Assembly: GCF_041986965.1 (NCBI RefSeq)
Contig: NZ_JBHIXB010000002.1
Coordinates: forward strand, 547,501-611,500
Direction: 5' to 3'
DNA length: 64,000 nucleotides
From: Hyphococcus sp.
GTDB lineage: Bacteria > Pseudomonadota > Alphaproteobacteria > Caulobacterales > Parvularculaceae
Shown one piece after another: positions 279 through 17,603 of this stretch. Under the pieces are notes generated by a model that did not search any database, was not told the DNA's origin, and saw nothing but the letters and a program-made list of their open reading frames with translations. The first letter of the stretch is position 1, and each line of letters starts with the position of its first letter. The position numbers and the translations under genes are program-made.

Positions 279-1166
279 CTATGCGTCATTGATCTCATCA
301 AAAATCGGATTTCGCAGGAGAAAGGCGATGGCCTTCGCGCGCTCCTCGTTGATGGGCTCGTCGGGGAAGGACTTCAAGATCGCGTTGAACTTCTCTTCAG
401 CGCCCTTTTTGAACTCCGGATGCGTAAGAATATAAAGATCATTGTTGAGAACGCCCTTTAGAACGCGCTCCCCGCACTCTTCCGCGCTCATCCACAGATC
501 CGAAACCGGACGTTCGGAAAGTTGCTGTTCTGTTTCCAGAAGGCCTGTGTTCTTTTTAAATTTTTCCGGCCGGATTTTTCCCGTTTCGCCGATATTTGAC
601 TGAACGGGTCCCGGACAAAAGGCTGACACGCCGATATTGTCGGGCGCCAGCTCACCCCGAATGGACTCAGAAAGGCCCAGCATGGCGGCTTTGGCCGTGC
701 CGTATATCGAAAAAGCGGTCACCGGCACCAGCGCCGCCTTGGAGGCGGTGTTGACGATATGGCCGCCTTCGCCATGCTTGCGAATATAAGGCAGCACGAT
801 CTGAAGTCCGTTGATGACCCCGCCGATCATGACGCCAAGCCCCCAGTCCCAGTCGTCAAAGCCGAGCTTTGCGAGCGGGCCGCCAACCCCCATGCCGGCG
901 TTGTTAAAGAGCATGTGGATCTTACCGAATTTCTCTTCGGCCTGGCTTGCCGCCGCGGCATAGGCTTCACGGTCAGTGACGTCGAGCTTCAGACATAACA
1001 CGCGATCGGGATCATCGAAAAACGCCGCAGCGCTCTTCAAATGATCGTCGCGAATATCGGCGAGAACCAGATTGGCGCCGGCTTCATAAAACGCCTTTGC
1101 GATGCCAAGTCCGATGCCGCTGGCGCCGCCGGTGATGAACGCCGTCTTTCCCTCTACATCTTTCAT
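279..1166 (-). CDS. SDR of the LigD/L/N/O C-alpha dehydrogenase family (most like LigL/LigN)
   Basis: Start re-assigned to MKDVEGKTAFITGGASGIG (ATG at 1166). Has TGGxxGIG, NNAG and YxxxK (YGTAK). The C-terminal RPEKFKKNTGLLETEQQL...WM resembles recalled LigL. Confidence 0.8.
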   Translation of the reverse strand: MKDVEGKTAFITGGASGIGLGIAKAFYEAGANLVLADIRDDHLKSAAAFFDDPDRVLCLKLDVTDREAYAAAASQAEEKFGKIHMLFNNAGMGVGGPLAKLGFDDWDWGLGVMIGGVINGLQIVLPYIRKHGEGGHIVNTASKAALVPVTAFSIYGTAKAAMLGLSESIRGELAPDNIGVSAFCPGPVQSNIGETGKIRPEKFKKNTGLLETEQQLSERPVSDLWMSAEECGERVLKGVLNNDLYILTHPEFKKGAEEKFNAILKSFPDEPINEERAKAIAFLLRNPIFDEINDA

Positions 1167-1402
1167 GAACGTCCCTGTCCTTTTAGGTCTTACTACTGTG
1201 AAGCATTTGCAATTATTGCGATGTCGCGTCGCTTTTTTACGCCAGCGAAAGTACGGTTGTTGGCGTTTGGACCTGACTGTCATTTGAGCCAAACAGCCAA
1301 TCGCCACCCATGGCGAAACGCGTCCCAACGAACGGTGAAAACGCGGGGCTGACGGCGTTTCGCCCCCTTTTCAATCGCCGCCGGTAAAGTCAGACTATCC
1401 CA

Positions 1403-2203
1403 ATGAGCAACAATGTGCGGGCCGAGATAAACTATGCTGCGCCGATGGCGGGGAAGCCGCGGTTTCACGCCAACGATCAGTCTCGCGATGTTCTAAATCT
1501 CGACCCGCAGACGGTGGAGTTCGTGGATGGTCGTGCGTCGCCGCCGGCGCTTGATCGTGAAGGATTTGCGCTTGTTTCGCATCGCAGCAAAGTGAAGGAT
1601 TTTCGCGACCCGGCTTTTCACGATCTGCACAAAAAAGAGATTGAAGAACTGATCGTCGAACTGACGGGCGCAGACATGGCGATTGTCAATTCACCGGGCG
1701 TCCTGCGGTTTGGCGAAAAATCCGCCGACAGCGGAAGGCTCAACAATTCCCGGCCGGCGCGTTTTATTCATATCGACATCAATGACGAGACTGCGGCGCA
1801 GTTTGCAAAAGCCTCCGCGCCGGAAGGCGCAAAAATAAAACGCACCGCACAGTACAATGTCTGGCGCGTACTCACCCCGCCGCCGCAGGATGTGCCGCTC
1901 GCTGTTTGCGATGCGCGCACCTTGTCGGCTGAAGACCTGATCGAAGCGGATGCCATTTTCGATCAGGAAGGGCAGCCCGACTGGACATTCACAGCGCTCC
2001 TGATCAAAGCGTCGCCACGCCATCGCTGGATCTGGTTCCCGGAGATGACGCCGGATGAGGCGCTGGTTTTTATTACCAATGACAGCGATCCGGCGCAGCC
2101 TCATCACGCCCCGCACAGCGCCTTCAACAATCCTCTTTGCCCGCCGGATGCGCCGCCCCGCGCCAGCATCGAGATGCGCGCCATCGCCTACTGGTTCGAG
2201 TAG
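1403..2203 (+). CDS. CmcJ/NvfI (AsaB-like) family Fe(II)/2-oxoglutarate-type oxidoreductase
   Basis: Motifs HID, YNVWR, PLAVCDA, PHSAF and RASIEMR are characteristic of this family. Confidence 0.65.
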   Translation: MSNNVRAEINYAAPMAGKPRFHANDQSRDVLNLDPQTVEFVDGRASPPALDREGFALVSHRSKVKDFRDPAFHDLHKKEIEELIVELTGADMAIVNSPGVLRFGEKSADSGRLNNSRPARFIHIDINDETAAQFAKASAPEGAKIKRTAQYNVWRVLTPPPQDVPLAVCDARTLSAEDLIEADAIFDQEGQPDWTFTALLIKASPRHRWIWFPEMTPDEALVFITNDSDPAQPHHAPHSAFNNPLCPPDAPPRASIEMRAIAYWFE

Positions 2204-2226
2204 TCATCGCACGAAGGAGCTTCGAC

Positions 2227-3693
2227 ATGGGAGAGTTTCCCAAAACCGTGGACTTCATGTTCCTCAACACGCCGATCGGCGAGGAATATTCTCTCAAAGG
2301 GCTCGAGGTGGAGGGCGATATTCCCGATGATATTCGGGGGGCGTTCTTTCGCGCCGTCCCCGACCCTGCTTTCCCGCCTCTCTTCATTGACGACACGGCG
2401 ATCTCCGGTGACGGTATGGTCTCCCGCCTATGGTTCAAAGAGGACGGCTCGGTTGATTTCGACATTCGCTATGTGCAAACCGCCCGCCACAAAGCTGAAA
2501 TTGAGGCAGGCAAGGCGCTGTTCGGACGCTACAGAAATCCCTATACCGACGATCCCTCCGTAAAAGGCGTCGACCGCACGGTCTCCAACACAACGCCGAT
2601 CTGGCATGGCGGAAAACTGTTGATGGCGAAGGAAGACGGCCGCGCCTATCGCGTCGATCCGATCACGCTTGAGACAGTCGGGTCTTATGATTTCGGCGGC
2701 AAGCTGAAATCGGAAACCATGACCGCTCATGCCCGTGTCGACCCGGAGACTGGCGAGCTTTTCTTTTTTGGATATGAAGCCGACGGCCTCGCCTCCACCA
2801 AAGTCGCCTACTGCATCGCCGATAAAAATGGTGAGCTAATTAAAGAACAGTGGTTTGACGCGCCCTATTGCGGCTTGATGCACGATTTCGTCATCACCAA
2901 AAACTATGCGGTCTTTCCTGTCTTTCCGACGACAGCTGATCTCGCCCGGTTAAAGGACGGCGGCGTTCACTGGGTTCATGAGCAGGACCGGGAAAGCTGG
3001 ATAGGCATCATGCCGCGCTATGGCGACGTCAAGGAAATGCACTGGATCAAAGGACCGAAAGGCGTTTCCGTCTTCCACTTCATGAACTGCTTCGAGGACG
3101 ACGATGGCCGCATTCACCTCGATCAGCATCTGACGGAAACAAACGCGTTTGAATTTATCCGCCGCCCGTCGGGGATTGACATCCCGCAATCTGAAATCAA
3201 GGGCGGTCTGGTGCGCTGGTCGTTCGATCCCAAAGGCGATGAAATCACCGAAACGCCGCTCGGGCCTCCGGGCGATCTCTGCCGTATTCGCGACGCCGAT
3301 CAGGGCCGCCCTTACACAGTCGGCTGGTATCTCAGCATGGACCCTGAAATGAAGGGCCCGCCCATGCTTGGCGGCCCGGTCGGCGTCGCCTTCAACGCTC
3401 TCATTGCCATCAATCCGCAAAGCGGGGCGATGAAAATGCTCGGACTGCCGCCGGGACACGCGATCAGCGAACCGGCGCATATCGTATCATCACAAGCGGA
3501 TCATCCCGGCTGGCTTTTGTTCATTATCGACCGGCAAACCGGCGAAGATCAGTTCGAACACGAAGCATGGATCGTGAATGCGGGCGAAATTCAAGAAGCG
3601 CCCGTCGCGAAAGTCAAAATCCCGCATCGCTTGCGCCCGCAGGTGCATGGCTGGTGGGCGTCCCAAGAAACGCTCGACAAGGCCGCCGCCTAA
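2227..3693 (+). CDS. lsdD: Lignostilbene alpha,beta-dioxygenase (carotenoid oxygenase family), LsdD/NOV2-like
   Basis: RBS GAAGGAG, then ATG at 2227. Motifs FFRAVPDP, GDGM, YRNPYTDD, KEDG, TAH, MHDF, FH and EPAH...QVHGWW supply the four Fe-His ligands. Closely resembles recalled NOV2. Confidence 0.85.
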   Translation: MGEFPKTVDFMFLNTPIGEEYSLKGLEVEGDIPDDIRGAFFRAVPDPAFPPLFIDDTAISGDGMVSRLWFKEDGSVDFDIRYVQTARHKAEIEAGKALFGRYRNPYTDDPSVKGVDRTVSNTTPIWHGGKLLMAKEDGRAYRVDPITLETVGSYDFGGKLKSETMTAHARVDPETGELFFFGYEADGLASTKVAYCIADKNGELIKEQWFDAPYCGLMHDFVITKNYAVFPVFPTTADLARLKDGGVHWVHEQDRESWIGIMPRYGDVKEMHWIKGPKGVSVFHFMNCFEDDDGRIHLDQHLTETNAFEFIRRPSGIDIPQSEIKGGLVRWSFDPKGDEITETPLGPPGDLCRIRDADQGRPYTVGWYLSMDPEMKGPPMLGGPVGVAFNALIAINPQSGAMKMLGLPPGHAISEPAHIVSSQADHPGWLLFIIDRQTGEDQFEHEAWIVNAGEIQEAPVAKVKIPHRLRPQVHGWWASQETLDKAAA

Positions 3694-3702
3694 GTTAGAA
3701 CA

Positions 3703-4617
3703 TCACGTCAGATCATCGAGGCTGATCTTGCGGCCCGCCGCTGCAGCCTTGTTGCCTTCGCGTCTCAGGCGCTCAATCTCCAGACGGCCTTCCGGCGCTT
3801 GTTCCTGTGGCAGCGCCGCCATGGTCGTTTCGTAGATTTCCTGAATGTCAGGCCCATGTTCCGGATGCGTAAGGATCAGCCCGTGATTTTCCGTCATGCC
3901 CTTGAGGATCTTCTCACCGACTTCCAGCGGATCCATGCCCAAGTCGAACGCGCCGCCGAATTTTTCAAGCTCCGCCTTGTCCACCTCGCCAAGCCCGCTG
4001 TCCTTGAAATTGTCCGGACGTTTGAGGGCGGAATCCCAGGCGTTCGTTTTCGTCAGGCCGGGACAGCAGAGCGACACGCCAATATTGTAAGGCGCCAGAT
4101 TGTAGCGCAGGCATTCGGTGAGGCCGCGAACGGCAAACTTGCTCGCCGTATAAATGCCCGCCTGCGGCCCCGCAATAAACGCCGCCATGCTCGCCACATT
4201 GACGATATGCCCGCCCTCGCCATGGGACTTGATCTTCGGAATGAAGCTGACGATCCCGTTGACGTTGCCGCCGAAATTGACGCCCATGATCCAGTCAAAG
4301 TCATCATAGGTCGCCTCGTCCGTGGGGCCGAACACGCTGACGCCGGCATTGTTGACGAGCACATGCACCCTGCCGAAATGCGCCTCAACTTCATCCGCTG
4401 CCTCGGCGAAGCGCGCGCGGTCCTGCACATCTAGCTTTACAAATAGCGGCGCCTCCCGGCCCTGGCTTTCAAACCACTTCGCAGCCTCAGCCTTATAGGC
4501 TTCGTTGCGATAGCTGAGCGCCAGACGCATCCCCGCATTGGAGAAGGCCCGCGCGACGCCGAACCCAATGCCGGAGACTCCGCCGGTGATGAACGCCGTT
4601 TTTCCCTGCCAGTCCAT
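3703..4617 (-). CDS. SDR of the LigD/L/N/O C-alpha dehydrogenase family
   Basis: Start MDWQGKTAFITGGVSGIG with RBS GGGAGG. Has NNAGVSVFGPTDEATYDDFDWIMGVN and YTASK. Confidence 0.8.
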   Translation of the reverse strand: MDWQGKTAFITGGVSGIGFGVARAFSNAGMRLALSYRNEAYKAEAAKWFESQGREAPLFVKLDVQDRARFAEAADEVEAHFGRVHVLVNNAGVSVFGPTDEATYDDFDWIMGVNFGGNVNGIVSFIPKIKSHGEGGHIVNVASMAAFIAGPQAGIYTASKFAVRGLTECLRYNLAPYNIGVSLCCPGLTKTNAWDSALKRPDNFKDSGLGEVDKAELEKFGGAFDLGMDPLEVGEKILKGMTENHGLILTHPEHGPDIQEIYETTMAALPQEQAPEGRLEIERLRREGNKAAAAGRKISLDDLT

Positions 4618-4699
4618 GAATGCCTCCCGCCGATAGTGGTTTGCCGCCCCCCTCATGCTATCCATCGGGGGTAGCGGGAATGATAACCGGGAGGACGCC

Positions 4700-5389
4700 G
4701 TGAGTGAACTTGATGATATGAAGTCAGAGCTTGCTGAACTGAAAAATCGCGTCGGCAAGATCGAGGATCTGCACGCCATCCGGAAGCTTCATTATGCTTA
4801 CGGTTACTATATCGACTTCTGCCAGTATGACGAAGTCGTCCAGCTCTTCGCCAAGGATGGCGAAGTCATTTTCCTTTCCGGCATCTATAAAGGCCATGAG
4901 GGCGTCGCGCGTCTTTACAAAACCTGGTTCCAGAATTTCTTCACGCAAGGCAAGCCGGGACCGGAATATGGCTTTCTGCTCGATCACTTCCAGATGCAGG
5001 ACATCATCACCGTCGCAGACGACCGCAAGACGGCGAAAGGCCGGTTTCGCGCCGTCCTCATGGGCGGCAACCATGAAACCCGTGACTACAAGCCCGAAGG
5101 CCTGCCGGAACAGTTCTATGAAGCCGGCATCTATGAAAATGACTATGTGCAAGAAGACGGCGTTTGGAAAATCAAACGTCTTGATTACATGGTCCAATGG
5201 CAAGCGGAATATGAAAAGGGCTGGGCGCATACGGAAGCCCATTTGCAGCCTGCTGTCGAAACCTATCCGAAAAACCCGCTTGGTCCTGACGAGCTTCTGC
5301 CGACACCGCGCCAGACATGGCCGCACCGTCACGACGTCCCCTATCACTACGCCCACCCGGTGATGGGAGCGAAGCTCAATGGCAAATGA
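4700..5389 (+). CDS. ldpA: SnoaL/NTF2-fold gamma-formaldehyde lyase, LdpA-like (diarylpropane lyase)
   Basis: GTG at 4700 after GGGAGGA. Motifs IRKLHYAYGYYID, LLDHFQMQD, EAGIYENDY and TWPHR resemble recalled LdpA. Confidence 0.7.
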   Translation: MSELDDMKSELAELKNRVGKIEDLHAIRKLHYAYGYYIDFCQYDEVVQLFAKDGEVIFLSGIYKGHEGVARLYKTWFQNFFTQGKPGPEYGFLLDHFQMQDIITVADDRKTAKGRFRAVLMGGNHETRDYKPEGLPEQFYEAGIYENDYVQEDGVWKIKRLDYMVQWQAEYEKGWAHTEAHLQPAVETYPKNPLGPDELLPTPRQTWPHRHDVPYHYAHPVMGAKLNGK

Positions 5390-6518
5390 GCTTTTGCCCG
5401 ACGGCAGCGAAAAAGGCCTGCGCGGTTATATGGTCGAACGCGGCGTCAGGCGCCGCATCGGCATGGCGCCGCCCGCTGGCGAGATAGACCGCAACGCGCC
5501 GTATAAGCGCATCGCCACGGAAGAAGCCTGGACATTTCCGGAACTGGTCGAGGCTCAGGTTAAATTTCTAAAAAGCGCTAATGCGCCAAACGATCCTGCG
5601 CTACGCATGGGCGGCATGTTCGCCTCCATGCCGGAATTACAGAAAATGCTGTGTGATCTCGGCGATCTCAGGATCGCGCATATGGATGAATACGGCATCG
5701 ACCGCCAACTGCTGTTGCTAACTGCGCCAGGTCCGCAAGTGCTGGAGCCCGAAGAGGGAACACGCCTCGCCGCAAAATCGAACGATATCGCGGCAGAGGC
5801 TTGCGCGAAACGGCCCGACCGCTTCTCCGCCCTCGCCGCTTTTCAGCCGCAGGACCCGGACAAAGCCGCGCGGGAAATCGAACGCGCCATGAAAGAGCTG
5901 AAGCTCAACGGCGCTGTGTTGAATTCACATTTTCGGGGACATTTTCTCGACGAGCCGCAATGCGATCCCATTCTGGCCGCGCTCGAGGAAAATGACGCGG
6001 CCCTTTATATTCACCCAACGGCGCCATTTGACGACCGGGTTTATTCAGCCCGCGCAACGACGGGCGCTCTTGGCGGTTTCCCGCACGATGTGTGGAATCA
6101 CACTATGGGGCTGATCCTTTCGGGCGCCTTCGACAAATACCCGAAGCTCCGGCTTGTGATCGGCCATCTCGGCGAATGTATGCCGTTGCATCTTTATCGC
6201 TTCGACTGGATGCAATCGAACGCCGACGGCGTGCCCGGACTTCGCGGCGGCCAGCCCGCGGTGACGTTGAAACATCCCATGAGCCATTACTTCCACAACA
6301 ATATCTGGATCACCACAAGCGGCGTCGGCTGGGAGCCGGGAATCAAATTTTGCATGGACGTGATGGGGCCGGAGCGCGTCCTCTACGCCATGGACTATCC
6401 CTATCAGCAGTCATCGGACGAAGTCGCCGCTTATGACCGGATGGATATTCCGCCGGCTCACAAGAAAATGTTGATGCAGGAAAACGCCGAGCACGTCTTC
6501 CGGCTGCCCAAAGATTAA
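5379..6518 (+). CDS. Amidohydrolase-2 non-oxidative aromatic decarboxylase, LigW/LigW2 paralog
   Basis: Metal-ligand motifs RIATEE, YIHP, IGHLGE and MDYPYQ. Has a roughly 40-aa N-terminal extension and overlaps the upstream gene. Confidence 0.75.
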   Translation: MANELLPDGSEKGLRGYMVERGVRRRIGMAPPAGEIDRNAPYKRIATEEAWTFPELVEAQVKFLKSANAPNDPALRMGGMFASMPELQKMLCDLGDLRIAHMDEYGIDRQLLLLTAPGPQVLEPEEGTRLAAKSNDIAAEACAKRPDRFSALAAFQPQDPDKAAREIERAMKELKLNGAVLNSHFRGHFLDEPQCDPILAALEENDAALYIHPTAPFDDRVYSARATTGALGGFPHDVWNHTMGLILSGAFDKYPKLRLVIGHLGECMPLHLYRFDWMQSNADGVPGLRGGQPAVTLKHPMSHYFHNNIWITTSGVGWEPGIKFCMDVMGPERVLYAMDYPYQQSSDEVAAYDRMDIPPAHKKMLMQENAEHVFRLPKD

Positions 6519-7351
6519 GCCTTCGCGGTCACGATCCAGGCGGCGGCGTCGAGGCGGATTGAACCGTTTTTGTGAAACGGCGTTAACGCCTCGATGACGT
6601 CGGCGCGCGCCTTGTCCTTGACGCCTGGCCCGGCTTCTTCAAGCGGCTCACCAATGGCGAGCGCATCCATGACAAAATCCGCTGCGCTTTCCGGTGTCGC
6701 CCCCTCGCCGCCAAGCAATTGCTCACCCTGCCAGAGCTTGCATTCGACATCCTTCCAGCCCGCGCGTTCAAGCAAGGCCTTGGTGGCGTCCGGATCCGCC
6801 ATCCGGAACGGTCCCGGTCCATCCGGTTCACGCTCCGGCATCTCCACATATTTACCGGCGATGGCGCCGACCATTCCGATCCAGGGATTTTTCTCTGGCG
6901 GGCCCCAACAGGAGAAGGTGAAATCGCCGCCGGGCTTCACCCAGCTTCTGATATTGGCGAAAGCCTTGTCGGGGTCTTCGAAGAACATAATCCCGAAGCT
7001 GGAAAAGGCGCGATCGCGCAGTGCATCAAGGCTCGCCGTCTGAGCGTCGGCGCATTTGAAATCGACATTGTCAACGCCCGCATCCGCCGCCCGCTTTTTC
7101 GAATGCTCGATCAGGATTTCCGCAATATCAACGCCAAGAACGCCCCCCGAAGGTGCAACCGCCCGCGCGATCTCGATGACGTTTTTGCCGCCGCCAGAAC
7201 CGATCTCCACCACCTGCTCACCCGGCTTGAACGCCGCAGCCTTCATAAGCGAGGCATTGATCGGCGAAATCATGGATTCAAATGGAACGAGATATTTGAG
7301 CCAGCGTTCGCCGACTTCGCCATTCCAGTCTTCAACGGCCTGATCCGTCAT
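6515..7351 (-). CDS. Class I SAM-dependent methyltransferase
   Basis: Motif I VEIGSGGG, then GVD, DA and SSFGIMFF. Confidence 0.85.
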   Translation of the reverse strand: MTDQAVEDWNGEVGERWLKYLVPFESMISPINASLMKAAAFKPGEQVVEIGSGGGKNVIEIARAVAPSGGVLGVDIAEILIEHSKKRAADAGVDNVDFKCADAQTASLDALRDRAFSSFGIMFFEDPDKAFANIRSWVKPGGDFTFSCWGPPEKNPWIGMVGAIAGKYVEMPEREPDGPGPFRMADPDATKALLERAGWKDVECKLWQGEQLLGGEGATPESAADFVMDALAIGEPLEEAGPGVKDKARADVIEALTPFHKNGSIRLDAAAWIVTAKA

Positions 7352-7614
7352 ATTCTTCTTCTCCCTTTCACATCACCGCATTGTTGCTCAGGAACTATGC
7401 TTTTGCGACGCCAAATGGGAAGGCGCAATCGCAGGAAATGCGAGAGCGGTTAAGGTGCAGCGCACAATGTGAACAGCGCTTCACCGAACGAGTTCTGGGT
7501 CTGATTTTGTTTCCTTTTGCGGCATCCGGCGCCTGACGGCGTCGGCTACGATCAAAATTAAAGGCCGGACCGGTTGCTCGCGCCGGTCATGAGGATAACG
7601 ATGAGAAGCGCAAT

Positions 7615-8376
7615 ATGAGCAATGTCACGCTTTATCACTGGGAGCCGAACGCCAATTCCGGCAAACCGATGCTGGCGTTGATGGAAAAAGGCGTTGAGTT
7701 CGAAAGTCACTATCTCGACCTGTTGAATTTCGACCAGCACCAGCCCGATTATCTCGCGATCAATCCCCAGGGGACAATCCCCGCCATGACGCATGGCGAT
7801 CGGGTGCTGACAGAATCGACAGCGATCATGGAATATGTGGACGCCGCTTTTCCGGGTCCGAACTTGATGCCCGAAGATCCAAGGGATCAGTGGCGCGTCA
7901 GATGGTGGATGAAGTTCATGGATCAATGGCTGGCGCCCTCCTTCTCCATGATCGGCTGGAGCGTCTTTGTGGGACCTATGGTGCGCAGCAAAGACCCGGA
8001 AGAATTGAAAGCCGCTATTGACCGTATTCCTCTGCCGGAACGCCGTGTCGCCTGGCGTAAGGCGATTTACGGAACCTTCGGCGAGGAAGAAATGAAAGAA
8101 TCGCAGCGACGCGTGGCGCTCGGCATTCGCATGCTTGAAGAGGAGCTTTCCAAACGGGAATGGCTCGCCAGCGACCAATACAGTCTCGCCGACGTAAACG
8201 GTTTCAACATCGCTTACGCTCTGCCCCTGTCGCAGCCGGATCTGTCCAACGACGAAAAGACGCCGCATATTCTCGAATGGCTGCGCAAAATCTACGAACG
8301 CCCGGCGGCTAAAAAGACCTGGGCCATGGGAAAAACCGATATGGTCAAACGCGTGCAAATTCTGGAGCGTTCATAA
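7615..8376 (+). CDS. baeA: GST, BaeA-like subunit of a heterodimeric beta(R)-etherase
   Basis: LYHWEPNANSGKP with Asn14/Ser15, INPQGTIP, LTESTAI, and LigF-like IPLPERRVAW. Coupled to the next GST by a TAATG overlap. Confidence 0.75.
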   Translation: MSNVTLYHWEPNANSGKPMLALMEKGVEFESHYLDLLNFDQHQPDYLAINPQGTIPAMTHGDRVLTESTAIMEYVDAAFPGPNLMPEDPRDQWRVRWWMKFMDQWLAPSFSMIGWSVFVGPMVRSKDPEELKAAIDRIPLPERRVAWRKAIYGTFGEEEMKESQRRVALGIRMLEEELSKREWLASDQYSLADVNGFNIAYALPLSQPDLSNDEKTPHILEWLRKIYERPAAKKTWAMGKTDMVKRVQILERS

Positions 8377-9158
8377 TGGCTTTGACGCTCTATCACGGCG
8401 ACCCTAACGGCCCTTCATTTACCGTCCTGGCGGCGCTTTTTGAAACCGGTCATGACGCGGCGCTGCATCCCATAGACCTGACCATGGGCGAACGTCACAG
8501 CGATAAGGTTCCACGCAGTGTGGAAGTTGAAATGAGCATTGAAGGCGAAGGGCCGGTCCTTGTGGCCGATGGTGAGCCGATGGCGGATTCGGTGTTTCTC
8601 GCCTGCTACCTCAACGATTTGGCGGCTGACTCTCCCATCGCACCCACCGATCCTTTCGCCCGTTGGGAGATGATGACCTGGTGTCGCCAGATTATCGAAC
8701 GCGCGGCGCCGGCAGCCGCCTATCTCGGCGTAAAAACCCATCTGGCTGACAAACTGTCAGCGCTGAACGATGCGGCGTTCGAAAAGCTGACGGCGCCAAT
8801 CAAAAGCGAGGATTTAAAAGCGCGCTGGCGTGATACTCGCGCCAACTCCTTCCCTGAAGATAAAATCGAGGACTCCAGGGCTAAAATCGCAACAGCCGTC
8901 CAAAAAGTTGAAACTCAACTCAGTGACGGGCGCGACTGGCTGCTTGGCGACTTTTCTATCGCCGATCTCGAAACCTATGCCTGGCTTTCAGGAATGCGTG
9001 ACCTCGAACCTGCGGCGTTTGAAGGCGCAAAACAAACAAGCGCGTGGATCGATCGCATAGAGGCCCGCCCCTCCGTTATCCGCACGCTTTCGCTGGCGAA
9101 AACACCTACGCCACACCAGGTCTGGGCGCCGGGCCCGGAAATCAATCGCTGGGGCTGA
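8376..9158 (+). CDS. baeB: Degenerate GST, BaeB-like partner subunit
   Basis: LYHGDPNGPS (Ser14), a degenerate GSH-site loop (MSIEGEGPVL), FSIADLETY and GPEINRWG end. Overlaps baeA by 1 nt. Confidence 0.7.
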   Translation: MALTLYHGDPNGPSFTVLAALFETGHDAALHPIDLTMGERHSDKVPRSVEVEMSIEGEGPVLVADGEPMADSVFLACYLNDLAADSPIAPTDPFARWEMMTWCRQIIERAAPAAAYLGVKTHLADKLSALNDAAFEKLTAPIKSEDLKARWRDTRANSFPEDKIEDSRAKIATAVQKVETQLSDGRDWLLGDFSIADLETYAWLSGMRDLEPAAFEGAKQTSAWIDRIEARPSVIRTLSLAKTPTPHQVWAPGPEINRWG

Positions 9159-9172
9159 TTTCCTGCGTTTGC

Positions 9173-10063
9173 TTATTTTCCACGGGCGGCGGCGCGAGCC
9201 TTGCGATAATTCTCGCGCCGTCCCCGCTCAAAAGCGAGCCGTTCCACCGGGGCGTCTCCTTTCGGATAATCCGCAATGATTTCGTCAAAGACTTCGCGAA
9301 GCTCGTCCCTGAATTCCGGATGCGGAAAGATATAAAACTTGTTCTCGCGAATCGCCTCGATCGTCTTCGCCGCTACTTCTTCAGGCTCCATGCCTGCTTC
9401 ATGCACTTTCGCCAATTGCGCGTTAAAGGCCGCGTCTACAGGTTTGCCGCGCGACGCCAGGGCTTCCGGCCGGACATCGTCGCTCGCGTAGATATGGCTC
9501 TTTACAAGGCCGGGACATAGCGCTGAAACGCCGATCCGGTGCGGTGCCAGGGAATAACGCAAGGATTCCGACAAGCCCCGAACGGCGAATTTCGAACAAT
9601 TATAGATACCCGGCACGGGGCCCGCGAGAAAGCTCGCCATCGAGGCGGTGTTCACAACATGCCCGCCCTTGCCGCGCTCCTTCATCCGGGGAACGAAGGT
9701 CTGAACGCCGTTAATGACGCCATGAAGATTGACGCCCAGCACCCAGTCCCAGTCGTCATAGCTGCTCTCATCTATAGTCTGGAACAGATTGATGCCGGCA
9801 TTGTTGAAGACAAGGGAAACGGGCCCCAGACGGCGCTCAGCCTCGTCCGCCGCCTCTGCAAACTCCGTTCTGGAGGAGACATCCATGCAAAGGCCTGTCG
9901 CCTCATGACTGTCAAGCGCGTCCAGCGCGGCGTCGATAGCATCCTGACGGATGTCGGCGATCGCGACCTTGACGCCCTCAGCGAGCAAGGCCCGCGCAAG
10001 CCCCAGCCCAATGCCATTGGCGCCGCCCGTGATAAACGCGGTTCGCCCGGCGAAATCCTTCAT
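9173..10063 (-). CDS. SDR of the C-alpha dehydrogenase family (resembles the recalled N. aromaticivorans LigO-type Saro_0793)
   Basis: MKDFAGRTAFITGGANGIG, NNAGINLFQ...SSYDDWDWVLGVNLHGV, YNCSK and YASDDVRP. Confidence 0.8.
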   Translation of the reverse strand: MKDFAGRTAFITGGANGIGLGLARALLAEGVKVAIADIRQDAIDAALDALDSHEATGLCMDVSSRTEFAEAADEAERRLGPVSLVFNNAGINLFQTIDESSYDDWDWVLGVNLHGVINGVQTFVPRMKERGKGGHVVNTASMASFLAGPVPGIYNCSKFAVRGLSESLRYSLAPHRIGVSALCPGLVKSHIYASDDVRPEALASRGKPVDAAFNAQLAKVHEAGMEPEEVAAKTIEAIRENKFYIFPHPEFRDELREVFDEIIADYPKGDAPVERLAFERGRRENYRKARAAARGK

Positions 10064-10260: not shown

Positions 10261-10989
10261 ATGACCGACGCCGACCGCATTGCACAACTTGAAGCGCAAG
10301 TCGCTGCGCTGACCGACCGCATAACGCGCACCGAGGATGAACAGGCGGTCCGCAAGCTTCACCATCTATACGGCTATTTTATCGATAAATGTTTATATAG
10401 AGAGGTCGTTGATCTGTTCACCGACGATTGCGAAGTGCATTTCTTCGGCGGCATCTTCAAAGGAAAGGCCGGGGCGGCGCGACTCTATATTGAACGTTTT
10501 CAAAAACAGTTCGTGCATGGCAATAATGGCCCGGTGGACGGCTTTCTGCTCGACCACCCCCAGCATCAGGATGTAGTTGATATCCTCGATGACGGCGTCA
10601 CCGGGCTCGCCCGCTTCCGGTGCACCATGCAGGCCGGGCGGCACAAATCCTTTGGCGAGATCCGGCAATGGTGGGAAGGCGGCCTATACGAGAACACCTA
10701 CAAGAAAGTGGACGGCGTATGGCGCATTCACATTCTGAACTATGTGCCCCAATGGCATGCTGATTTTGAAACCGGTTGGGGGCATACGCGTCCCAATTAT
10801 GTACCGTTTTTGAATACACCATATCCGGAAGACCCGGTGGGCCCAGACGAAATCAATGAAGATGTATGGCTCTGGCCGACCCACAAGGTTGTGCCGTTTC
10901 ACAACAAGCACCCGGTCACCGGCAAGGACATCAAGCCAGAGCGCTGGCAGGGCGACATCGACCGTGAAAAGGAAGCGAAACAGAAATGA
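10261..10989 (+). CDS. pcfL: SnoaL/NTF2-fold gamma-formaldehyde lyase, PcfL-like (phenylcoumaran beta-5)
   Basis: VRKLHHLYGYFID, LLDHPQHQD and WEGGLYENTY. First gene of an ALDH-ligW run, as in the known pcfL-ferD-ligW neighbourhood. Confidence 0.7.
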   Translation: MTDADRIAQLEAQVAALTDRITRTEDEQAVRKLHHLYGYFIDKCLYREVVDLFTDDCEVHFFGGIFKGKAGAARLYIERFQKQFVHGNNGPVDGFLLDHPQHQDVVDILDDGVTGLARFRCTMQAGRHKSFGEIRQWWEGGLYENTYKKVDGVWRIHILNYVPQWHADFETGWGHTRPNYVPFLNTPYPEDPVGPDEINEDVWLWPTHKVVPFHNKHPVTGKDIKPERWQGDIDREKEAKQK

Positions 10990-12416
10990 CAGCTTATCCT
11001 GAACTTTACATGATCATTGATGGCGAGCGCATCCACAAAGGAAGCCGCCGCACCCATCGTGTCGTCAATCCAGCGACGGAGGAAACGCTGGGCGAGTTGC
11101 CGCTTGCCGACGCGGCGGATCTCGACCGGGCGCTGGAGACAGCTGAGAAAGGCTTCAAAATCTGGCGCAATTCAACGCCACAGGAGCGCGCCGCCGTCTT
11201 GCAGGGCGCGGCGCGACTAATGATGGAGCGCGCTGACGACATGGCGCGCATCGCCACCATGGAAGAAGGAAAGCCCTTTCCCGAAGCCCGCATCGAAGTG
11301 ATGATGAATGTGGGGCTTTTCAATTTCTACGCCGGCGAATGCCAACGTCTTTATGGCCGCACACTGGTGCGGCCGGCGGGCATGCGCTCAACCGTAACCA
11401 AAGAACCTGTCGGCCCCGTCGCCGCTTTTTCGCCCTGGAACTTCCCGATCGGCAATCCCGGCCGCAAACTCGGCGCGCCCATCGCCGCCGGCTGTTCCGT
11501 CATCATGAAATCGGCGGAGGAAACGCCCGCTTCGGCGCTCGCTGTTCTGCAGGCGCTGCTTGATGCAGGACTTCCCAAAGAAGTGGCGCAAGCCGTGTTC
11601 GGCGTGCCCGATGAGGTCTCGCGCCACCTCCTCGCCTCGCCGATTATCCGCAAGCTCTCCTTTACCGGGTCCACCGTCGTCGGCAAGCATCTGGCGAAAC
11701 TCGCCGCCGAAGATATGAAACGCACAACGATGGAGCTTGGCGGGCACGGACCGGTGCTGGTCTTCAAGGATGTCGACCTCGACAAGGTGCTCGACACCGT
11801 CGTGCCGCAGAAATTCCGCAATGCCGGACAGGTCTGCGTCTCGCCGACCCGCTTCATGATTCAGGAAGAGATCTATGACGATTTCGTCGCCGGTTACACG
11901 AAACGCGCCAAGACCTTGAAAGTCGGCAATGGCCTCGACGATGGCGTACAGATGGGGCCCATGGCCAATCCGCGCCGCCCCGACGCCATGGAACAGCTTA
12001 TTGGCGACGCTGTGTCGAAAGGCGCGAAGCTTCATACCGGCGGCGAACGCATCGGCAATCAGGGCTTCTATTACGCCCCGACCGTTCTCTCCGACGTCCC
12101 GCAAGCCAGCGAGATCATGAATACTGAACCTTTCGGGCCTGTAGCCTTGTGCAATCCGTTCAAGTTAGAGGAAGACGCCATCGTCGAAGCGAACCGCCTG
12201 CCCTATGGCCTCGCCGCTTATGCCTGGACGCAGGATGCGGCACGTCAGAAGCGCCTCGCCCATGAAGTCGAAACCGGCATGCTGGGCATCAACACGGTGA
12301 TGATCGGCGGCGCGGACTCGCCTTTCGGCGGCGTCAAATGGTCAGGACACGGCGCTGAAGACGGGCCGGAAGGCGTCGAAGCCTGCCTCGTCACCAAAGT
12401 CGTTCACGAAGGATAA
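10986..12416 (+). CDS. ferD: NAD-dependent aromatic aldehyde dehydrogenase (SSADH-like), FerD-like
   Basis: FSPWNFP, FTGST, MELGGH, GQVCVSP (catalytic Cys) and EPFGP. ATGA overlap with pcfL. The name comes mainly from synteny. Confidence 0.65.
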   Translation: MTAYPELYMIIDGERIHKGSRRTHRVVNPATEETLGELPLADAADLDRALETAEKGFKIWRNSTPQERAAVLQGAARLMMERADDMARIATMEEGKPFPEARIEVMMNVGLFNFYAGECQRLYGRTLVRPAGMRSTVTKEPVGPVAAFSPWNFPIGNPGRKLGAPIAAGCSVIMKSAEETPASALAVLQALLDAGLPKEVAQAVFGVPDEVSRHLLASPIIRKLSFTGSTVVGKHLAKLAAEDMKRTTMELGGHGPVLVFKDVDLDKVLDTVVPQKFRNAGQVCVSPTRFMIQEEIYDDFVAGYTKRAKTLKVGNGLDDGVQMGPMANPRRPDAMEQLIGDAVSKGAKLHTGGERIGNQGFYYAPTVLSDVPQASEIMNTEPFGPVALCNPFKLEEDAIVEANRLPYGLAAYAWTQDAARQKRLAHEVETGMLGINTVMIGGADSPFGGVKWSGHGAEDGPEGVEACLVTKVVHEG

Positions 12417-12419
12417 TCC

Positions 12420-13472
12420 ATGACCCATGAGTTAAAGATCGGCGGCGATCGCGGATATTTGCGCATCGCGACCGAAGAAGCCTTCGCCACGCAGGAGCAG
12501 ATCGACGCCTATCTGAGCATGGTGAAGGACGGAACCGCCGACAAGGGTATGGTTTCGCTCTGGGGTTTTTACGCGACCTCGCCTTCTGAGCGCGCGACCC
12601 ACATTATGGAGTGTCTTCTCGATCTCGATGATCTGCGTCTGAAACACATGAATGAGACGGGGATCGACATCGCAATCCTGTCGCTCACTTCGCCCGGCGT
12701 GCAACCGCTGCCGACGGAAGAAGCCAAAGGCATGGTCTCCCGCGCCAATGATTATCTGGAAGCCGCCGTCGCGCGCCATCCGACACGGTTTGTCGGCATG
12801 ACCTCGATCGCGCCCCAGGACCCCGAATGGAGCGCAAAAGAAATCCATCGCGGCGCAGAAATGGGGTTCAAGGGCGTGATGGTGAACAGCCACACGCAAG
12901 GCGAATATCTCGACGATCCTAAATACGATCCCATCTTCAAAGCGCTCGAGGCGACCGGACAGCCGCTCTACATCCACCCGCAGACGCCGCCGGATGCGAT
13001 GATCGACCCCATGCTGGAAGCGGGCCTCGACGGCGCCATTTTCGGCTTCGGCGTCGAGACGGGGATGCATCTCTTACGTCTCCTCACCATCGGCATCTTC
13101 GACCGATACCCGAACTTGCAGATCATTGTCGGCCATATGGGCGAAGCTCTTCCCTATTGGCTTTATCGTCTCGACTACATGCACCAGGCCGGCGTGCGCG
13201 CGAAGCGTTACGAGCGCATGAAGCCGCTGAAAAAGACGATCACCGACTATATGCGCTCAAACGTCTATATCACATCGAGCGGCATGGCCTGGGAGCCGGC
13301 GATCAAGTTCGCGCAATCCGTTCTCGGCGAGGATCGCGTCATGTATGCGATGGACTATCCTTATCAGTTTGTCGCTGACGAGGTGCGCACCCATGACCTT
13401 CTCGACATATCGCCCGAAACCAAGAAAAAACTAATGCAAACAAACGCCGAACGAGCGTTCAAGCTAATATAA
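12420..13472 (+). CDS. ligW: 5-carboxyvanillate/5-carboxyferulate decarboxylase LigW
   Basis: GYLRIATEEAF...DKGMVSLWGFY...SERAT, LEAGLDGAIFGFGVETGMHLLRL and AMDYPYQ are nearly identical to the recalled N. aromaticivorans LigW. Confidence 0.9.
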   Translation: MTHELKIGGDRGYLRIATEEAFATQEQIDAYLSMVKDGTADKGMVSLWGFYATSPSERATHIMECLLDLDDLRLKHMNETGIDIAILSLTSPGVQPLPTEEAKGMVSRANDYLEAAVARHPTRFVGMTSIAPQDPEWSAKEIHRGAEMGFKGVMVNSHTQGEYLDDPKYDPIFKALEATGQPLYIHPQTPPDAMIDPMLEAGLDGAIFGFGVETGMHLLRLLTIGIFDRYPNLQIIVGHMGEALPYWLYRLDYMHQAGVRAKRYERMKPLKKTITDYMRSNVYITSSGMAWEPAIKFAQSVLGEDRVMYAMDYPYQFVADEVRTHDLLDISPETKKKLMQTNAERAFKLI

Positions 13473-13494
13473 CCGGGACGAGGAACAGCACATC

Positions 13495-15129
13495 ATGGCC
13501 GCCAAAGATGTAGAGAACGCCGGCGCGACAAAGCTTGGCGGCCGCGCCGCCTGGTATGCGCTATTTCTGGTGACGCTGACGACCGCCATGTCCATGGTGG
13601 ACCGGCAAATTCTTGCTATTCTGGCCCCGCAGATCAAAGCCGATCTCAATATTGGCGACGCCGAGATGGGCGTTCTTTACGGCGCCGTATTCGGATTATT
13701 TTACTCTGTTTTCTCTCTTCCCCTGGGACGCCTCGCTGACGGCTGGGTGCGCACCAGACTTTTGAGCATTTCCATTTTCGGCTGGTCGATCATGACCGGT
13801 CTCGCCGGGTTTGCGAATGGCTTCGGCATGCTTGCCCTCTCGCGACTGGGCGTTGGCATTGGCGAGGCGAGTTCTCAACCCGCGGGCATGTCGCTATTGT
13901 CCGATCTCTTCCCAAAGAGCCAGCGCGGCACTATCACGGCGGCCATGTCGATCGCCGTTGCGCTCGGCGTCGGCGGCGCCCTGATGCTTGGCGGGGCGGT
14001 CGCCGACGGATGGGATGGCGCCTACGCCAATGGCGGGGCGCCGCTCGGGCTCAAGGGCTGGCAAGCGGCTTTCCTTGTCGCCGCCGCGCCCGGAATTGTT
14101 TTAAGCCTGCTGCTGTTGCGCCTGCCAGAGCCTGTACGCGGCGCAGCTGACGGCGTGCTCGCCAAGCCCGACCCGGCGCCGTTCCGTGCGAGTTTCGATA
14201 CATTGATCGGCATGCTTCCAGGCTTTGCCTGGCTTGAATTCGTGCGACGCAAAGCAACGCCGAAATTATGGGCTATCAACATCACAGCCGCGGTCGTAAT
14301 CATCACCCTCAGCATCTTCATGACGCAGTGGACAAACGGCCTGCGCCCCGTAAATCCCGTCGCACTGAGACTCGGCGCCCTGGAGCTGACCGGCAACGCC
14401 TTACAATGGGCGATAACCGGCGTCGGCGCCTATATTGTCATCTGCTGGATGCAGTCGCTTTATTTACGCGACAAACCTGCCTTCGCCGTTATCGTCAAAC
14501 AGCCGTCGCTGGCGCTCCTCATCGGCATCGCTTCGCTCCAGTCCGTGTTGAATTATGGCGTCATGTCATGGGCGGCCGTTTACGGCATCCAGCACTTCAA
14601 TCGTTCCGCAGCGGAGATCGGCGCCACTTTTGGCCCCATCATCACGGTTTTAGGCATTATCGGCCCCCTGATCGCCGGCCCTGTGTCCGACTGGGCGCAT
14701 CAACGCATCAAGGGCGGACGCATTTATGTCACACTTCTCGCTCTCGGCGTTTCGCCATTCCTCGCCATCGGGGTTTTCAATGCGCAAACCCTTGGCGGTT
14801 ACTATGCCTGGTTTGTCATCTATTCACTCGTATTGACCATGTGGCTGCCGCCTGTCTACGCCTCGCTGATCGATCTCGTCTTACCGCGCATGCGCGGCAT
14901 GGTGATGAGTTATTATATTCTGATGATGACGATCACCGGGATGGGGCTTGGCCCCTATGCCGTCGGGATGATGAGCGACATCAATGGCGGCAATCTTGGC
15001 GAGGCGATCCTGACCCTTTACTGGGTGGCGCCAATCATTGTGGTGCTGATTGTGCTTCTCATCCGTCGCATGCCGAAGGATGAAGTTATTCTGTTAGAAC
15101 GCGCAAAGGCCGCCGGCGAACCGGTTTAA
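13495..15129 (+). CDS. MFS transporter (spinster-like) with extra central hydrophobic segments
   Basis: MVDRQIL, LGRLADGWVRTRLL (motif A) and GVGIGEA. 544 aa with many transmembrane stretches. Confidence 0.85.
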   Translation: MAAKDVENAGATKLGGRAAWYALFLVTLTTAMSMVDRQILAILAPQIKADLNIGDAEMGVLYGAVFGLFYSVFSLPLGRLADGWVRTRLLSISIFGWSIMTGLAGFANGFGMLALSRLGVGIGEASSQPAGMSLLSDLFPKSQRGTITAAMSIAVALGVGGALMLGGAVADGWDGAYANGGAPLGLKGWQAAFLVAAAPGIVLSLLLLRLPEPVRGAADGVLAKPDPAPFRASFDTLIGMLPGFAWLEFVRRKATPKLWAINITAAVVIITLSIFMTQWTNGLRPVNPVALRLGALELTGNALQWAITGVGAYIVICWMQSLYLRDKPAFAVIVKQPSLALLIGIASLQSVLNYGVMSWAAVYGIQHFNRSAAEIGATFGPIITVLGIIGPLIAGPVSDWAHQRIKGGRIYVTLLALGVSPFLAIGVFNAQTLGGYYAWFVIYSLVLTMWLPPVYASLIDLVLPRMRGMVMSYYILMMTITGMGLGPYAVGMMSDINGGNLGEAILTLYWVAPIIVVLIVLLIRRMPKDEVILLERAKAAGEPV

Positions 15130-15584
15130 ACGACCCGCCAGACCCAAAGCTTGATGCCGAGCTTGTAGCGCGCCCCAGCGCACACAAAGACCGATTTGTT
15201 GAGCCAGTCATACTTTCCGGTCGGTGCGATAAATTCGGGGATCGTGCGGAAGTAATATTCTGCAGGATCGACGTCATCACCCGCCATCAGGCGCTTCATC
15301 ACGTCCGGCGGCCCATGGCGCAAACCGCGATTGCGGATTTGAATAACAACCCCGTCATCAGTGCGCATGGCGTAAATCGCATCGGCAACCGTGACGCCGT
15401 CATGACGGGTCAACTGCCAGTCGGCAGCATTGCCCAAAAGCTCGCCTTTGATTTTTGGTCCTTCGACGGGCCCGGAGAAAATGGGAATGATCCGGCGCGT
15501 TCCATCCGGCGTATCACCGATAGAAATCGGCTCGCCAAGATCACCACCCGCTTCGTAGACGAATTCAAGTTCCGGTTTGATCAT
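15126..15584 (-). CDS. DUF3237 family beta-barrel protein
   Basis: Start MIKPELEFVY. Has RRIIPIFSG, ADWQ, YAMRTDDG, YYFRTIPEF and YDWLNKSVFV. Confidence 0.8.
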   Translation of the reverse strand: MIKPELEFVYEAGGDLGEPISIGDTPDGTRRIIPIFSGPVEGPKIKGELLGNAADWQLTRHDGVTVADAIYAMRTDDGVVIQIRNRGLRHGPPDVMKRLMAGDDVDPAEYYFRTIPEFIAPTGKYDWLNKSVFVCAGARYKLGIKLWVWRVV

Positions 15585-15588
15585 TTTT

Positions 15589-17055: not shown

Positions 17056-17068
17056 GGCTTCCTCCTTT

Positions 17069-17083
17069 GTAAGAATTGTATAT
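17069..17083. promoter_or_regulatory. Possible MarR operator between divergent lsdA and marR
   Basis: GTAAG-AATTG-TATAT is a degenerate version of the GTAWG-N5-YWTAC inverted repeat seen upstream of ligM. Confidence 0.3.
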
Positions 17084-17114
17084 GGTAGGCCCAAGGGAGC
17101 CAAGGGACAGGGGC

Positions 17115-17603
17115 GTGACAAAACGCAATCAGAATAAGAGAAAAACGCAGTCCGGAATTGACCAACATCAAGACGCCGAATTGGATGACATCGGGGAAAT
17201 CGACGACATCGTCGGCTTCCATATCCGCCTCGCCTATACGGCCGTGTACCGGCATTTTATGGACACGTTTTCCGAGTTGGACATGACCCAGAAACAGGTC
17301 TCGGTCTTGTGGCTCGTGGACGACCATCCGGGCATTGCGCAGACTGATCTCGCCAAGCGGCTGCGCATGGATCGCGCGACGGTGATGGCGATTATCAATC
17401 GGCTCGAAGGCCGGCGCCTCCTGCGACGCGGCCAGTCAACCAGTGACGGCCGCAAGCAGACGCTAAAATTGACGCCGACAGGACAGAAGATCCTCATCGA
17501 CGCCAAGAAAGCGGTCCTCGAACATGAAGAATGGCTGAAAAGCCGCTTCACCAAACAGGAAGTGCGCACATTGATTGATTTCCTGCGGCGCATTCACGAC
17601 TAG
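17115..17603 (+). CDS. MarR family regulator divergent from lsdA
   Basis: GFHIRLA, GIAQTDLAKRLRMDRATVMAIINRLE and DGRK. Likely GTG start at 17115. Confidence 0.9.
   Translation: MTKRNQNKRKTQSGIDQHQDAELDDIGEIDDIVGFHIRLAYTAVYRHFMDTFSELDMTQKQVSVLWLVDDHPGIAQTDLAKRLRMDRATVMAIINRLEGRRLLRRGQSTSDGRKQTLKLTPTGQKILIDAKKAVLEHEEWLKSRFTKQEVRTLIDFLRRIHD

Follow-up and report, generated by a model that had tools for sequence, protein, structure and literature searches.

The stretch analysed here (the window) comprises 64,000 nucleotides of a Hyphococcus sp. genome of the alphaproteobacterial family Parvularculaceae (assembly GCF_041986965.1, contig NZ_JBHIXB010000002.1, positions 547,501 to 611,500 of the forward strand). 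Near its left end, around positions 1403-3693, where the G+C content is about 56-59%, a CmcJ/NvfI-family oxygenase gene is immediately followed, on the same strand, by a gene for a lignostilbene-alpha,beta-dioxygenase (LSD). Around this pair are genes resembling those of the beta-1 (diguaiacylpropanediol, DGPD) pathway for lignin dimers. We call the oxygenase A, after the subfamily to which it belongs; the coordinates of all features are listed in Table 1. An initial annotation, made from the sequence alone, had proposed that the oxygenase is co-transcribed with the dioxygenase and may generate stilbenes or process the products of their cleavage.

The oxygenase gene is predicted to encode an intact Fe(II)/2-oxoglutarate (2OG) oxygenase of the CmcJ/NvfI family that is kept by purifying selection. 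Its product matches the NCBIfam model NF041278 (CmcJ/NvfI) with 258.8 bits, far above the curated cut-off of 80 bits, residues 6-264 being aligned with profile positions 1-263, and PF27522 is the precomputed annotation on all of its close homologues. The family is very large, with more than 3300 matches. For an AlphaFold2 model made with 35 homologues (pLDDT 93.7, pTM 0.92), the ten best Foldseek matches are all NvfI or CTB9, with template modelling (TM) scores of 0.79-0.84, E values of about 1e-21 and the double-stranded beta-helix; the next match, PtlH, drops to a TM score of 0.39. The HxD...H iron triad, H123, D125 and H238, is invariant in oxygenase alignments of 35 and 61 sequences that include both paralogue types described below, and it aligns with the H-x-D and H of NvfI. 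R253, S255 and R259 are invariant in the 35 homologues and align with P-R-E-S-I-D-V-R of NvfI, a putative 2OG-binding motif. The ratio of nonsynonymous to synonymous substitution rates (dN/dS) against Hyphococcus orthologues is 0.045-0.14, in the same range as for the adjoining LSD gene, and is approximate because dS is near saturation. The NF041278 score, the invariant triad and the Foldseek matches all bear out the HxD...H oxygenase fold and the family assignment of the initial annotation.

The oxygenase gene ends with a TAG at 2201-2203 and the dioxygenase gene begins with an ATG at 2227, leaving a gap of exactly 23 bp, the distance given in the initial annotation. A ribosome-binding site stands 7 nt before this ATG, and no terminator-like site was called within the gap; in the promoter and terminator scan nothing exceeded shuffled expectation. 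Because a convergent gene for a short-chain dehydrogenase/reductase (SDR) ends only 9 bp past the dioxygenase stop, the transcription unit, on paper, consists of exactly the oxygenase and the dioxygenase. The position of the oxygenase gene points to a two-gene operon, and from spacing and strand we infer that both genes are co-transcribed.

The initial annotation named the partner gene lsdD, a name that has to be rejected. The dioxygenase scores 852.5 bits on NF053780, "lignostilbene dioxygenase NOV2" (equivalog cut-off 650 bits), and only 396.6 bits on NF053778, the model for the NOV1/LsdD type (cut-off 800 bits). It matches the RPE65/carotenoid-oxygenase Pfam model with 378 bits, its four histidines (H168, H219, H284 and H474) do not vary among 59 LSD sequences, and it is 57-66% identical to the products of sphingomonad NOV2-type genes. 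Against solved LSD structures, including PDB 5j53, the sequence of which we take to be NOV1, it reaches about 290-310 bits. The NOV1/LsdD-type gene of the window is a different one, located further downstream, with 896.4 bits on NF053778. Since NOV1 is LsdD and NOV2 is LsdA (PMC11323797), and the gene is a NOV2 equivalog, the name lsdD is wrong for it; the pair therefore belongs to the beta-1 (diarylpropane) module.

The other genes at the locus are consistent with this assignment. An ldpA orthologue, an adjoining ldpB-like SDR gene and a NOV2-type LSD gene, which we use to define a beta-1 (DGPD) module, are all present. As judged from its genes, the set appears to be the beta-1 module of Sphingobium sp. 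SYK-6 and Novosphingobium aromaticivorans with two genes that are absent from its literature, the oxygenase gene and an amidohydrolase gene. The product of the ldpA orthologue scores 328 bits against PDB 8abv/8abt, deposited as SnoaL-like, which we take to be the LdpA structures of PMC9942872, compared with 175-195 bits for the two paralogues in the genome. Copies of the ldpB-like SDR gene, 65-78% identical, adjoin ldpA orthologues in sphingomonads, and in SYK-6 ldpB lies directly upstream of ldpA (bioRxiv 10.1101/2023.01.24.525472). Named Hyphococcus records hold the same cluster at 83-89% protein identity.

A homologue scan of species-representative genomes returned 49 loci. Subfamily A immediately precedes a NOV2-type LSD gene in Hyphococcus and other Parvularculaceae (L001-L005), in Sphingomonas metagenome-assembled genomes (MAGs; L022, L026, L035) and in sampled sphingomonads (L058, L071, L073), while in Emcibacter and two other lineages (L010, L024, L031) A is followed by a second paralogue and then by the LSD gene. 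Many genomes of Sphingomonas and Novosphingobium have A flanked by a TonB receptor gene on one side and a divergent ldpB-like/ldpA pair on the other, BaeAB-type glutathione S-transferase (GST) genes being 3 kb off. The order found in the window, A, LSD, SDR, LdpA, amidohydrolase, is repeated exactly in two genomes (G094 and G036; L081/L084 and L082/L087); the orders LdpA-SDR-A-AKR and AKR-A-LSD-PinZ-like, where AKR stands for an aldo-keto reductase gene, are found elsewhere. About 18 of the 24 A-bearing Sphingomonadales genomes have A within 5 kb of an ldpA, ldpB-like or NOV2-type LSD gene, and 6 of the 24 NOV2-type LSD genes fetched from 301 Sphingomonadales genomes have A directly upstream, one of them with paralogue B between. 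On the A tree at least four changes of LSD adjacency are needed, and the arrangement is therefore not one inherited block. The adjacency of A and LSD genes is recurrent, not obligatory. Conservation of the neighbourhood with lsd genes had been proposed as a check in the initial annotation, and the outcome was positive in Hyphococcus, Emcibacter and sphingomonads.

The distribution of A was followed in the same 301 genomes, with A called at 46% identity or more and ldpA orthologues at 62% or more. A is present in 24 of them, including all 22 with a NOV2-type LSD gene and all 23 with an ldpA orthologue (62-86% identical), counts that are phylogenetically non-independent, as discussed below. The etherase gene baeA, which is found in the same islands, is present in only 13 genomes. 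As sphingomonad A is almost confined to genomes with the known beta-1 pathway, it has probably been overlooked as an enzyme of that pathway. Gene positions and phyletic distribution together indicate that subfamily A is physically and phyletically tied to the beta-1 module across the Alphaproteobacteria. Neither SYK-6 nor N. aromaticivorans DSM 12444 was among the best 120 matches of a homologue search with a Novosphingobium query.

Outside the window, 11 kb upstream, the Hyphococcus genome encodes a second CmcJ/NvfI paralogue, B (G000:C2:536842-537654), which is 31% identical to A and adjoins a gene for a paralogue of LdpA. In general, A and B paralogues are 31-35% identical and both have intact iron sites; the B types keep the putative 2OG residues as well. 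In several genomes B and A form a tandem or are at most about 16 kb apart, and of the 24 sphingomonad genomes with A, 23 also have a B-like copy. Orthology among these copies is uncertain, since single sphingomonad genomes contain at least four subfamilies. The neighbour genes of "B2" subfamily copies in sphingomonads are not conserved.

Table 1. Coordinates of features in the window and in the locus L052 (G000:C2:527501-547500; positions within L052)
Feature	Position	Strand	Remarks
SDR dehydrogenase gene (C-alpha-dehydrogenase-like), divergent from oxygenase	279..1328	-	adh_short 158.6 bits
Inverted repeats TCGCCA-N4-TGGCGA (1301-1316) and AAACGC-N10-GCGTTT (1339-1360), 5' of oxygenase	1301..1360	.	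from sequence
CmcJ/NvfI-family Fe(II)/2OG oxygenase, subfamily A	1403..2203	+	266 aa, ATG start
Spacer with ribosome-binding site GAAGGAG (2213-2219)	2204..2226	+	23 bp, from sequence
Lignostilbene-alpha,beta-dioxygenase, NOV2 / LsdA(SYK-6) / PinU type	2227..3693	+	488 aa, NF053780
ldpB-like SDR gene, convergent with dioxygenase, divergent from ldpA	3703..4779	-	adh_short 163 bits
ldpA orthologue (diarylpropane gamma-formaldehyde lyase, NTF2/SnoaL_4 fold)	4700..5389	+	GTG start behind GGGAGGA
amidohydrolase_2 gene, LigW-like decarboxylase fold	5379..6518	+	PF04909 118 bits; overlaps ldpA by 11 nt
LdpA paralogue, PcfL-like lyase	10261-10989		beta-5 set
Aldehyde dehydrogenase gene	10986-12416		beta-5 set
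LigW-like gene	12420-13472		without NCBIfam match
Major facilitator superfamily (MFS) transporter gene	13495-15129		beta-5 set
NOV1/LsdD-type dioxygenase gene	15589-17121	-	opposite strand to rest of beta-5 set; 896 bits on NF053778
Paralogue B	L052 9342-10172	-	directly downstream of LdpA paralogue
LdpA paralogue	L052 10189-10908	-	divergent from SDR gene
SDR gene	L052 11131-12042	+	divergent from LdpA paralogue

The characterised relatives of oxygenase A are biosynthetic enzymes. NvfI, an Fe(II)/2OG endoperoxidase of Aspergillus novofumigatus (PDB 7DE2, 7EMZ, 7ENB), resembles it in sequence (phmmer E = 5e-18) and in fold (Foldseek TM 0.81, probability 1.00), and the HxD...H triad and a C-terminal R-x-S-x-x-x-R motif align. 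Sequence identity is, however, only 22-24%, and NvfI functions in fungal meroterpenoid biosynthesis, whereas A is a bacterial protein encoded in a putative catabolic operon with a stilbene dioxygenase gene. CTB9, the 2OG dioxygenase of cercosporin biosynthesis (PDB 7EUS, 7EUT, 7EUU), has the same fold (TM 0.84, 25% identity) and differs from A in being a fungal biosynthetic enzyme; according to the PDB title it binds the polycyclic aromatic pre-cercosporin, so the fold can accept methoxylated phenolics. The family namesake CmcJ, a cephalosporin 7-alpha-hydroxylase from cephamycin producers, is likened to A by the family model only, both falling in the NCBIfam subfamily model NF041278. CmcJ acts together with the methyltransferase CmcI on a beta-lactam, while no CmcI-type partner is present at the oxygenase A locus.

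The catabolic systems to be compared are those of sphingomonads. With the beta-1 pathway of SYK-6 and N. aromaticivorans (LigD/L, LdpB/C, LdpA and LsdA, that is NOV2) the window shares ldpA, the divergent ldpB-like SDR gene and the NOV2/LsdA-type gene, and the layout agrees. The published pathway includes no oxygenase besides the LSD and no amidohydrolase, whereas the module in the window has both, and both are conserved. In the pinoresinol system of Novosphingobium rhizosphaerae LY, the NOV2/LsdA-like dioxygenase PinU is translationally coupled to the reductase PinZ (PMC12607616); several genomes have A-LSD-PinZ-like operons. PinVW of the same system carries out a benzylic oxidation leading to deformylation (PMC12607616), which is the step proposed below for an oxygenase together with an LdpA-type lyase. 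PinW itself is unlike A, being an FAD enzyme of the p-cresol-dehydrogenase type with an unrelated fold.

We favour the reading that oxygenase A is an accessory enzyme of the module with bridge-oxidising chemistry, and put its probability at roughly 0.4. The two parts of this statement differ in strength: that A is a member of the beta-1 module is highly probable, while C-H oxidation on the dimer bridge as its specific chemistry is a tentative proposal. With O2 and 2OG the enzyme would hydroxylate (or desaturate) a C-H, benzylic or aliphatic, in the bridge of a diaryl-propane or -butane without a C-alpha hydroxyl; candidate substrates include alpha-deoxy beta-1 dimers and bibenzyls, as well as imperanene- or lariciresinol-type compounds formed by PinZ-like reductases. 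The product would carry an alpha-hydroxy, gamma-hydroxymethyl motif, which LdpA-type lyases would dehydrate and deformylate to a stilbene or diene, and the paired dioxygenase would cleave this product to aldehydes. Oxygenase and lyase together would in this way replace the PinVW flavocytochrome step of N. rhizosphaerae. The sphingomonad routes all reach the stilbene via a quinone methide, by dehydration (LdpA, PcfL), decarboxylation (PhcF/G, PinX) or oxidation (PinVW) (PMC12997858), and PinZ-type reduction leaves benzylic CH2 groups that need re-oxidation (PMC12607616). The PinZ-like gene of Hyphococcus (65% identity) is on another contig. C-H oxidation on the bridge of dimers in the "wrong" oxidation state fits best because an Fe/2OG oxygenase is coupled to a lyase (B) or an LSD (A), often with a PinZ-like reductase for benzylic ethers and an AKR. 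It is plausible, then, that the oxygenase makes stilbenes, or substrates for stilbene formation. Oxygenase A would be a dedicated accessory of stilbene-forming dimer pathways that is not required for the textbook substrate erythro-DGPD and that widens the intake of the module.

A and B occur together in nearly every genome with a beta-1 module, sometimes in A-B-LSD-PinZ-like operons. They might be benzylic hydroxylases that, either as a stereo-complementary pair or as a hetero-oligomer, take the different enantiomers of racemic alpha-deoxy dimers and lignan breakdown products; with LdpA-type lyases they would provide an O2/2OG-driven entry into stilbene cleavage parallel to PinVW. Such a pair would mirror the enantiomer pairs LigD/LigL, LdpB/LdpC and PhcF/PhcG, but we consider it unlikely.

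Several points weigh against bridge oxidation by a module enzyme. The published beta-1 pathway has only SDRs, LdpA and one LSD (PMC12997858), and A is therefore an accessory and not a core step. Random barcode transposon sequencing (RB-TnSeq) on pinoresinol in strain LY gave no such gene among its 8 hits (PMC12607616), although the presence of A in LY is not established. No A is found within 1.5 kb of 18 of the 24 sampled NOV2-type LSD genes, and as only 6 of the 24 have A upstream, the dioxygenase clearly works without the oxygenase. The genes of an island are inherited together by the genomes that share it, and for this reason the phyletic counts do not represent independent events and are inflated; the baeA control, at 13 genomes, indicates that the pattern of A, ldpA and NOV2-type LSD is nevertheless module-specific. 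A well-supported clade of A-type genes (57-61% identity) from Steroidobacteraceae, other Gammaproteobacteria and Rhizomicrobium has unrelated neighbour genes (MdoG, GGDEF/EAL, TonB receptors, malate synthase), and it is this clade that is nearest to the Hyphococcus A genes, with weak support (90/82). Moreover, the family performs hydroxylation, endoperoxidation and methoxy C-H oxidation, and its fold is not diagnostic of one reaction; the chemical step proposed for oxygenase A is an inferred one.

The clade beside unrelated genes is what would be expected if the oxygenase were a passenger, with a substrate unrelated to lignin dimers, that merely travels with an alphaproteobacterial aromatic-catabolism island, and the size of the family, with four or more subfamilies in single sphingomonad genomes, points the same way. 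All five genomes of this clade that were tested, however, also hold 2-8 LSD-family matches and LdpA-like genes elsewhere. A passenger gene would also have to account for the fact that A, in Hyphococcus/Parvularculaceae, Emcibacter and sphingomonads, is tightly arranged in three different ways with LSD, LdpA/SDR and PinZ-like genes, for an A profile that matches ldpA and NOV2-LSD better than that of baeA, a genuine island gene, does, and for the strong purifying selection on A. We regard this explanation as distinctly unlikely.

CTB9 oxidises an aryl methoxy C-H, forming a methylenedioxy bridge, and the Fe/2OG ether-cleaving dioxygenases TfdA, SdpA and RdpA occur in sphingomonads. Oxygenase A might accordingly be an oxidative O-dealkylase that hydroxylates the O-CH3 or ether carbon of a dimer or stilbene (e.g., 4-O-methyl, 4-O-alkyl); collapse of the hemiacetal would free the para-hydroxyl required by LdpA-type lyases and LSDs and release formaldehyde or a carbonyl compound. 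The aromatic polyketide bound by CTB9, the frequent location of A near BaeAB-type etherase genes and TonB receptor genes, and formaldehyde-detoxification genes near paralogue B would agree with such an activity. But the profile of A tracks ldpA (23/24) and NOV2-LSD (22/24), not baeA (13), and natural lignin fragments are 4-O-aryl-alkyl ethers processed by the SDR/GST route, not 4-O-methyl ethers. The window also contains a gene for a LigM-like tetrahydrofolate (THF)-dependent demethylase (GCV_T match at G000:C2:596621-597337, in a 474-aa frame), which makes a role of A in monomer O-demethylation unnecessary. Dealkylation is thus improbable. A function downstream of the dioxygenase appears less probable still: A would act, together with the AKR that precedes it in many sphingomonads, on the LSD aldehydes (vanillin, coniferaldehyde, syringaldehyde) or on some reactive by-product, for instance a stilbene quinone or dimer. 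A tight same-strand AKR-A pair is found in at least ten sampled genomes, the described reactions of NOV2-type LSDs all give vanillin-type aldehydes (PMC12997858, PMC12607616), and stilbene intermediates dimerise abiotically (PMC11323797). Yet Fe/2OG oxygenases are not known as aldehyde-detoxifying enzymes, aldehyde dehydrogenase genes are nearby, Hyphococcus has no AKR gene adjoining A, and paralogue B pairs with a lyase gene, that is, with an upstream step and not with product handling.

Some features of the module deserve comment in their own right. The adh_short domain of the SDR gene divergent from the oxygenase begins only at residue 61 of the long open reading frame (ORF), and the sequence shows an ATG preceded by a plausible upstream region. 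The real start is probably near 1168, giving an upstream region of about 230 bp in common with the oxygenase gene; that of the ldpB-like SDR gene is probably near 4617. The inverted repeats at 1301-1360 are possible operator sites, though no 12-mer was convincingly common to the upstream regions of the dimer modules and no motif matching these repeats was found there. An ORF at 4794-5363 (+) was considered as LdpA and rejected: it has no Pfam or PDB match and is an alternative frame of the real gene. Its tblastn matches in relatives (40-72%), at the right place and in the wrong frame, arise because the underlying ldpA is conserved, and such a frame is a trap for ORF-based annotation. In a sampled sphingomonad the ldpA orthologue (G260:C1:1528790-1529467) has an in-frame TAA and is either a pseudogene or affected by a sequencing error. 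No gene of the module is more conserved than the amidohydrolase gene (95-96% in Hyphococcus relatives, 71-80% in Emcibacter and sphingomonads), which always adjoins ldpA, although the published beta-1 pathway requires no decarboxylase.

The window contains a second set of dimer genes (10261-17121), which looks like a complete beta-5 module resembling the published one and in which no CmcJ gene is present. The beta-5 substrates suggested in the initial annotation, DC-C and 5-formylferulate, are less likely for oxygenase A because its partner is of the beta-1 NOV2/LsdA type. Upstream of the window, in L052, the ORF that follows B (8635-9321) has a MetE-like (Meth_synt_2) domain reduced to its N-terminal part and is possibly a split gene; a full MetE-like gene is located near the lyase genes at 3531-4658 (-). 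Also close to the lyase genes are an S-formylglutathione-hydrolase-type esterase gene (4880-5725, -) and a zinc alcohol dehydrogenase gene (6891-8003, -), which look like formaldehyde detoxification beside formaldehyde-releasing enzymes. About 2-8 kb upstream of the oxygenase in L002-L007, and at 13482-20000 of L052 in the window genome, a block that is conserved among Hyphococcus relatives encodes a pyrroloquinoline quinone (PQQ) dehydrogenase that carries a cytochrome c domain, together with an AraC regulator, a thiamine-diphosphate enzyme, an AMP-forming ligase and a transporter of the MFS type; the thiamine-diphosphate enzyme could be a candidate for cleaving benzoin-type (vanilloin) dimers. 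In Steroidobacteraceae and gammaproteobacterial MAGs, tandem arrays of 3-4 LdpA-like lyase genes adjoin LSD-family genes (G305:C572:4957-8727, G306:C93:8972-12641, G307:C10:23867-27682); the matches in a single genome reach 8 for the LSD family and 14 for LdpA-like genes. These arrays suggest large undescribed stilbene-forming dimer pathways beyond the sphingomonads.

In the literature we found no paper linking the CmcJ/NvfI family to lignin or stilbene catabolism, in line with the statement of the initial annotation that no such role is known. No paper named both CmcJ and lignostilbene, no bacterial catabolic paper was found for CmcJ/NvfI/AsaB-like terms, the lignin and sphingomonad papers found make no mention of a 2OG-dependent enzyme, and of the locus tags that we guessed around lsdA and ldpA only Saro_2808, given as pinZ, was found in papers, the LigR regulon paper mentioning none of them. 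As a protein, oxygenase A does not stand out in its known family; the novelty lies in its conserved position within a catabolic module that has been studied well. That A tracks ldpA and the NOV2-type dioxygenase almost one-to-one suggests that the natural substrate range of the module exceeds erythro/threo-DGPD. Among the additional substrates might be dimers in reduced (alpha-deoxy) form, for example from reductive lignin depolymerisation, and lignan metabolites. If this is true, oxygenase A would have the first catabolic role known to us in a family that has until now been met only in antibiotic and fungal natural-product biosynthesis, and it would be a concrete, easily testable candidate for widening biological funnelling.

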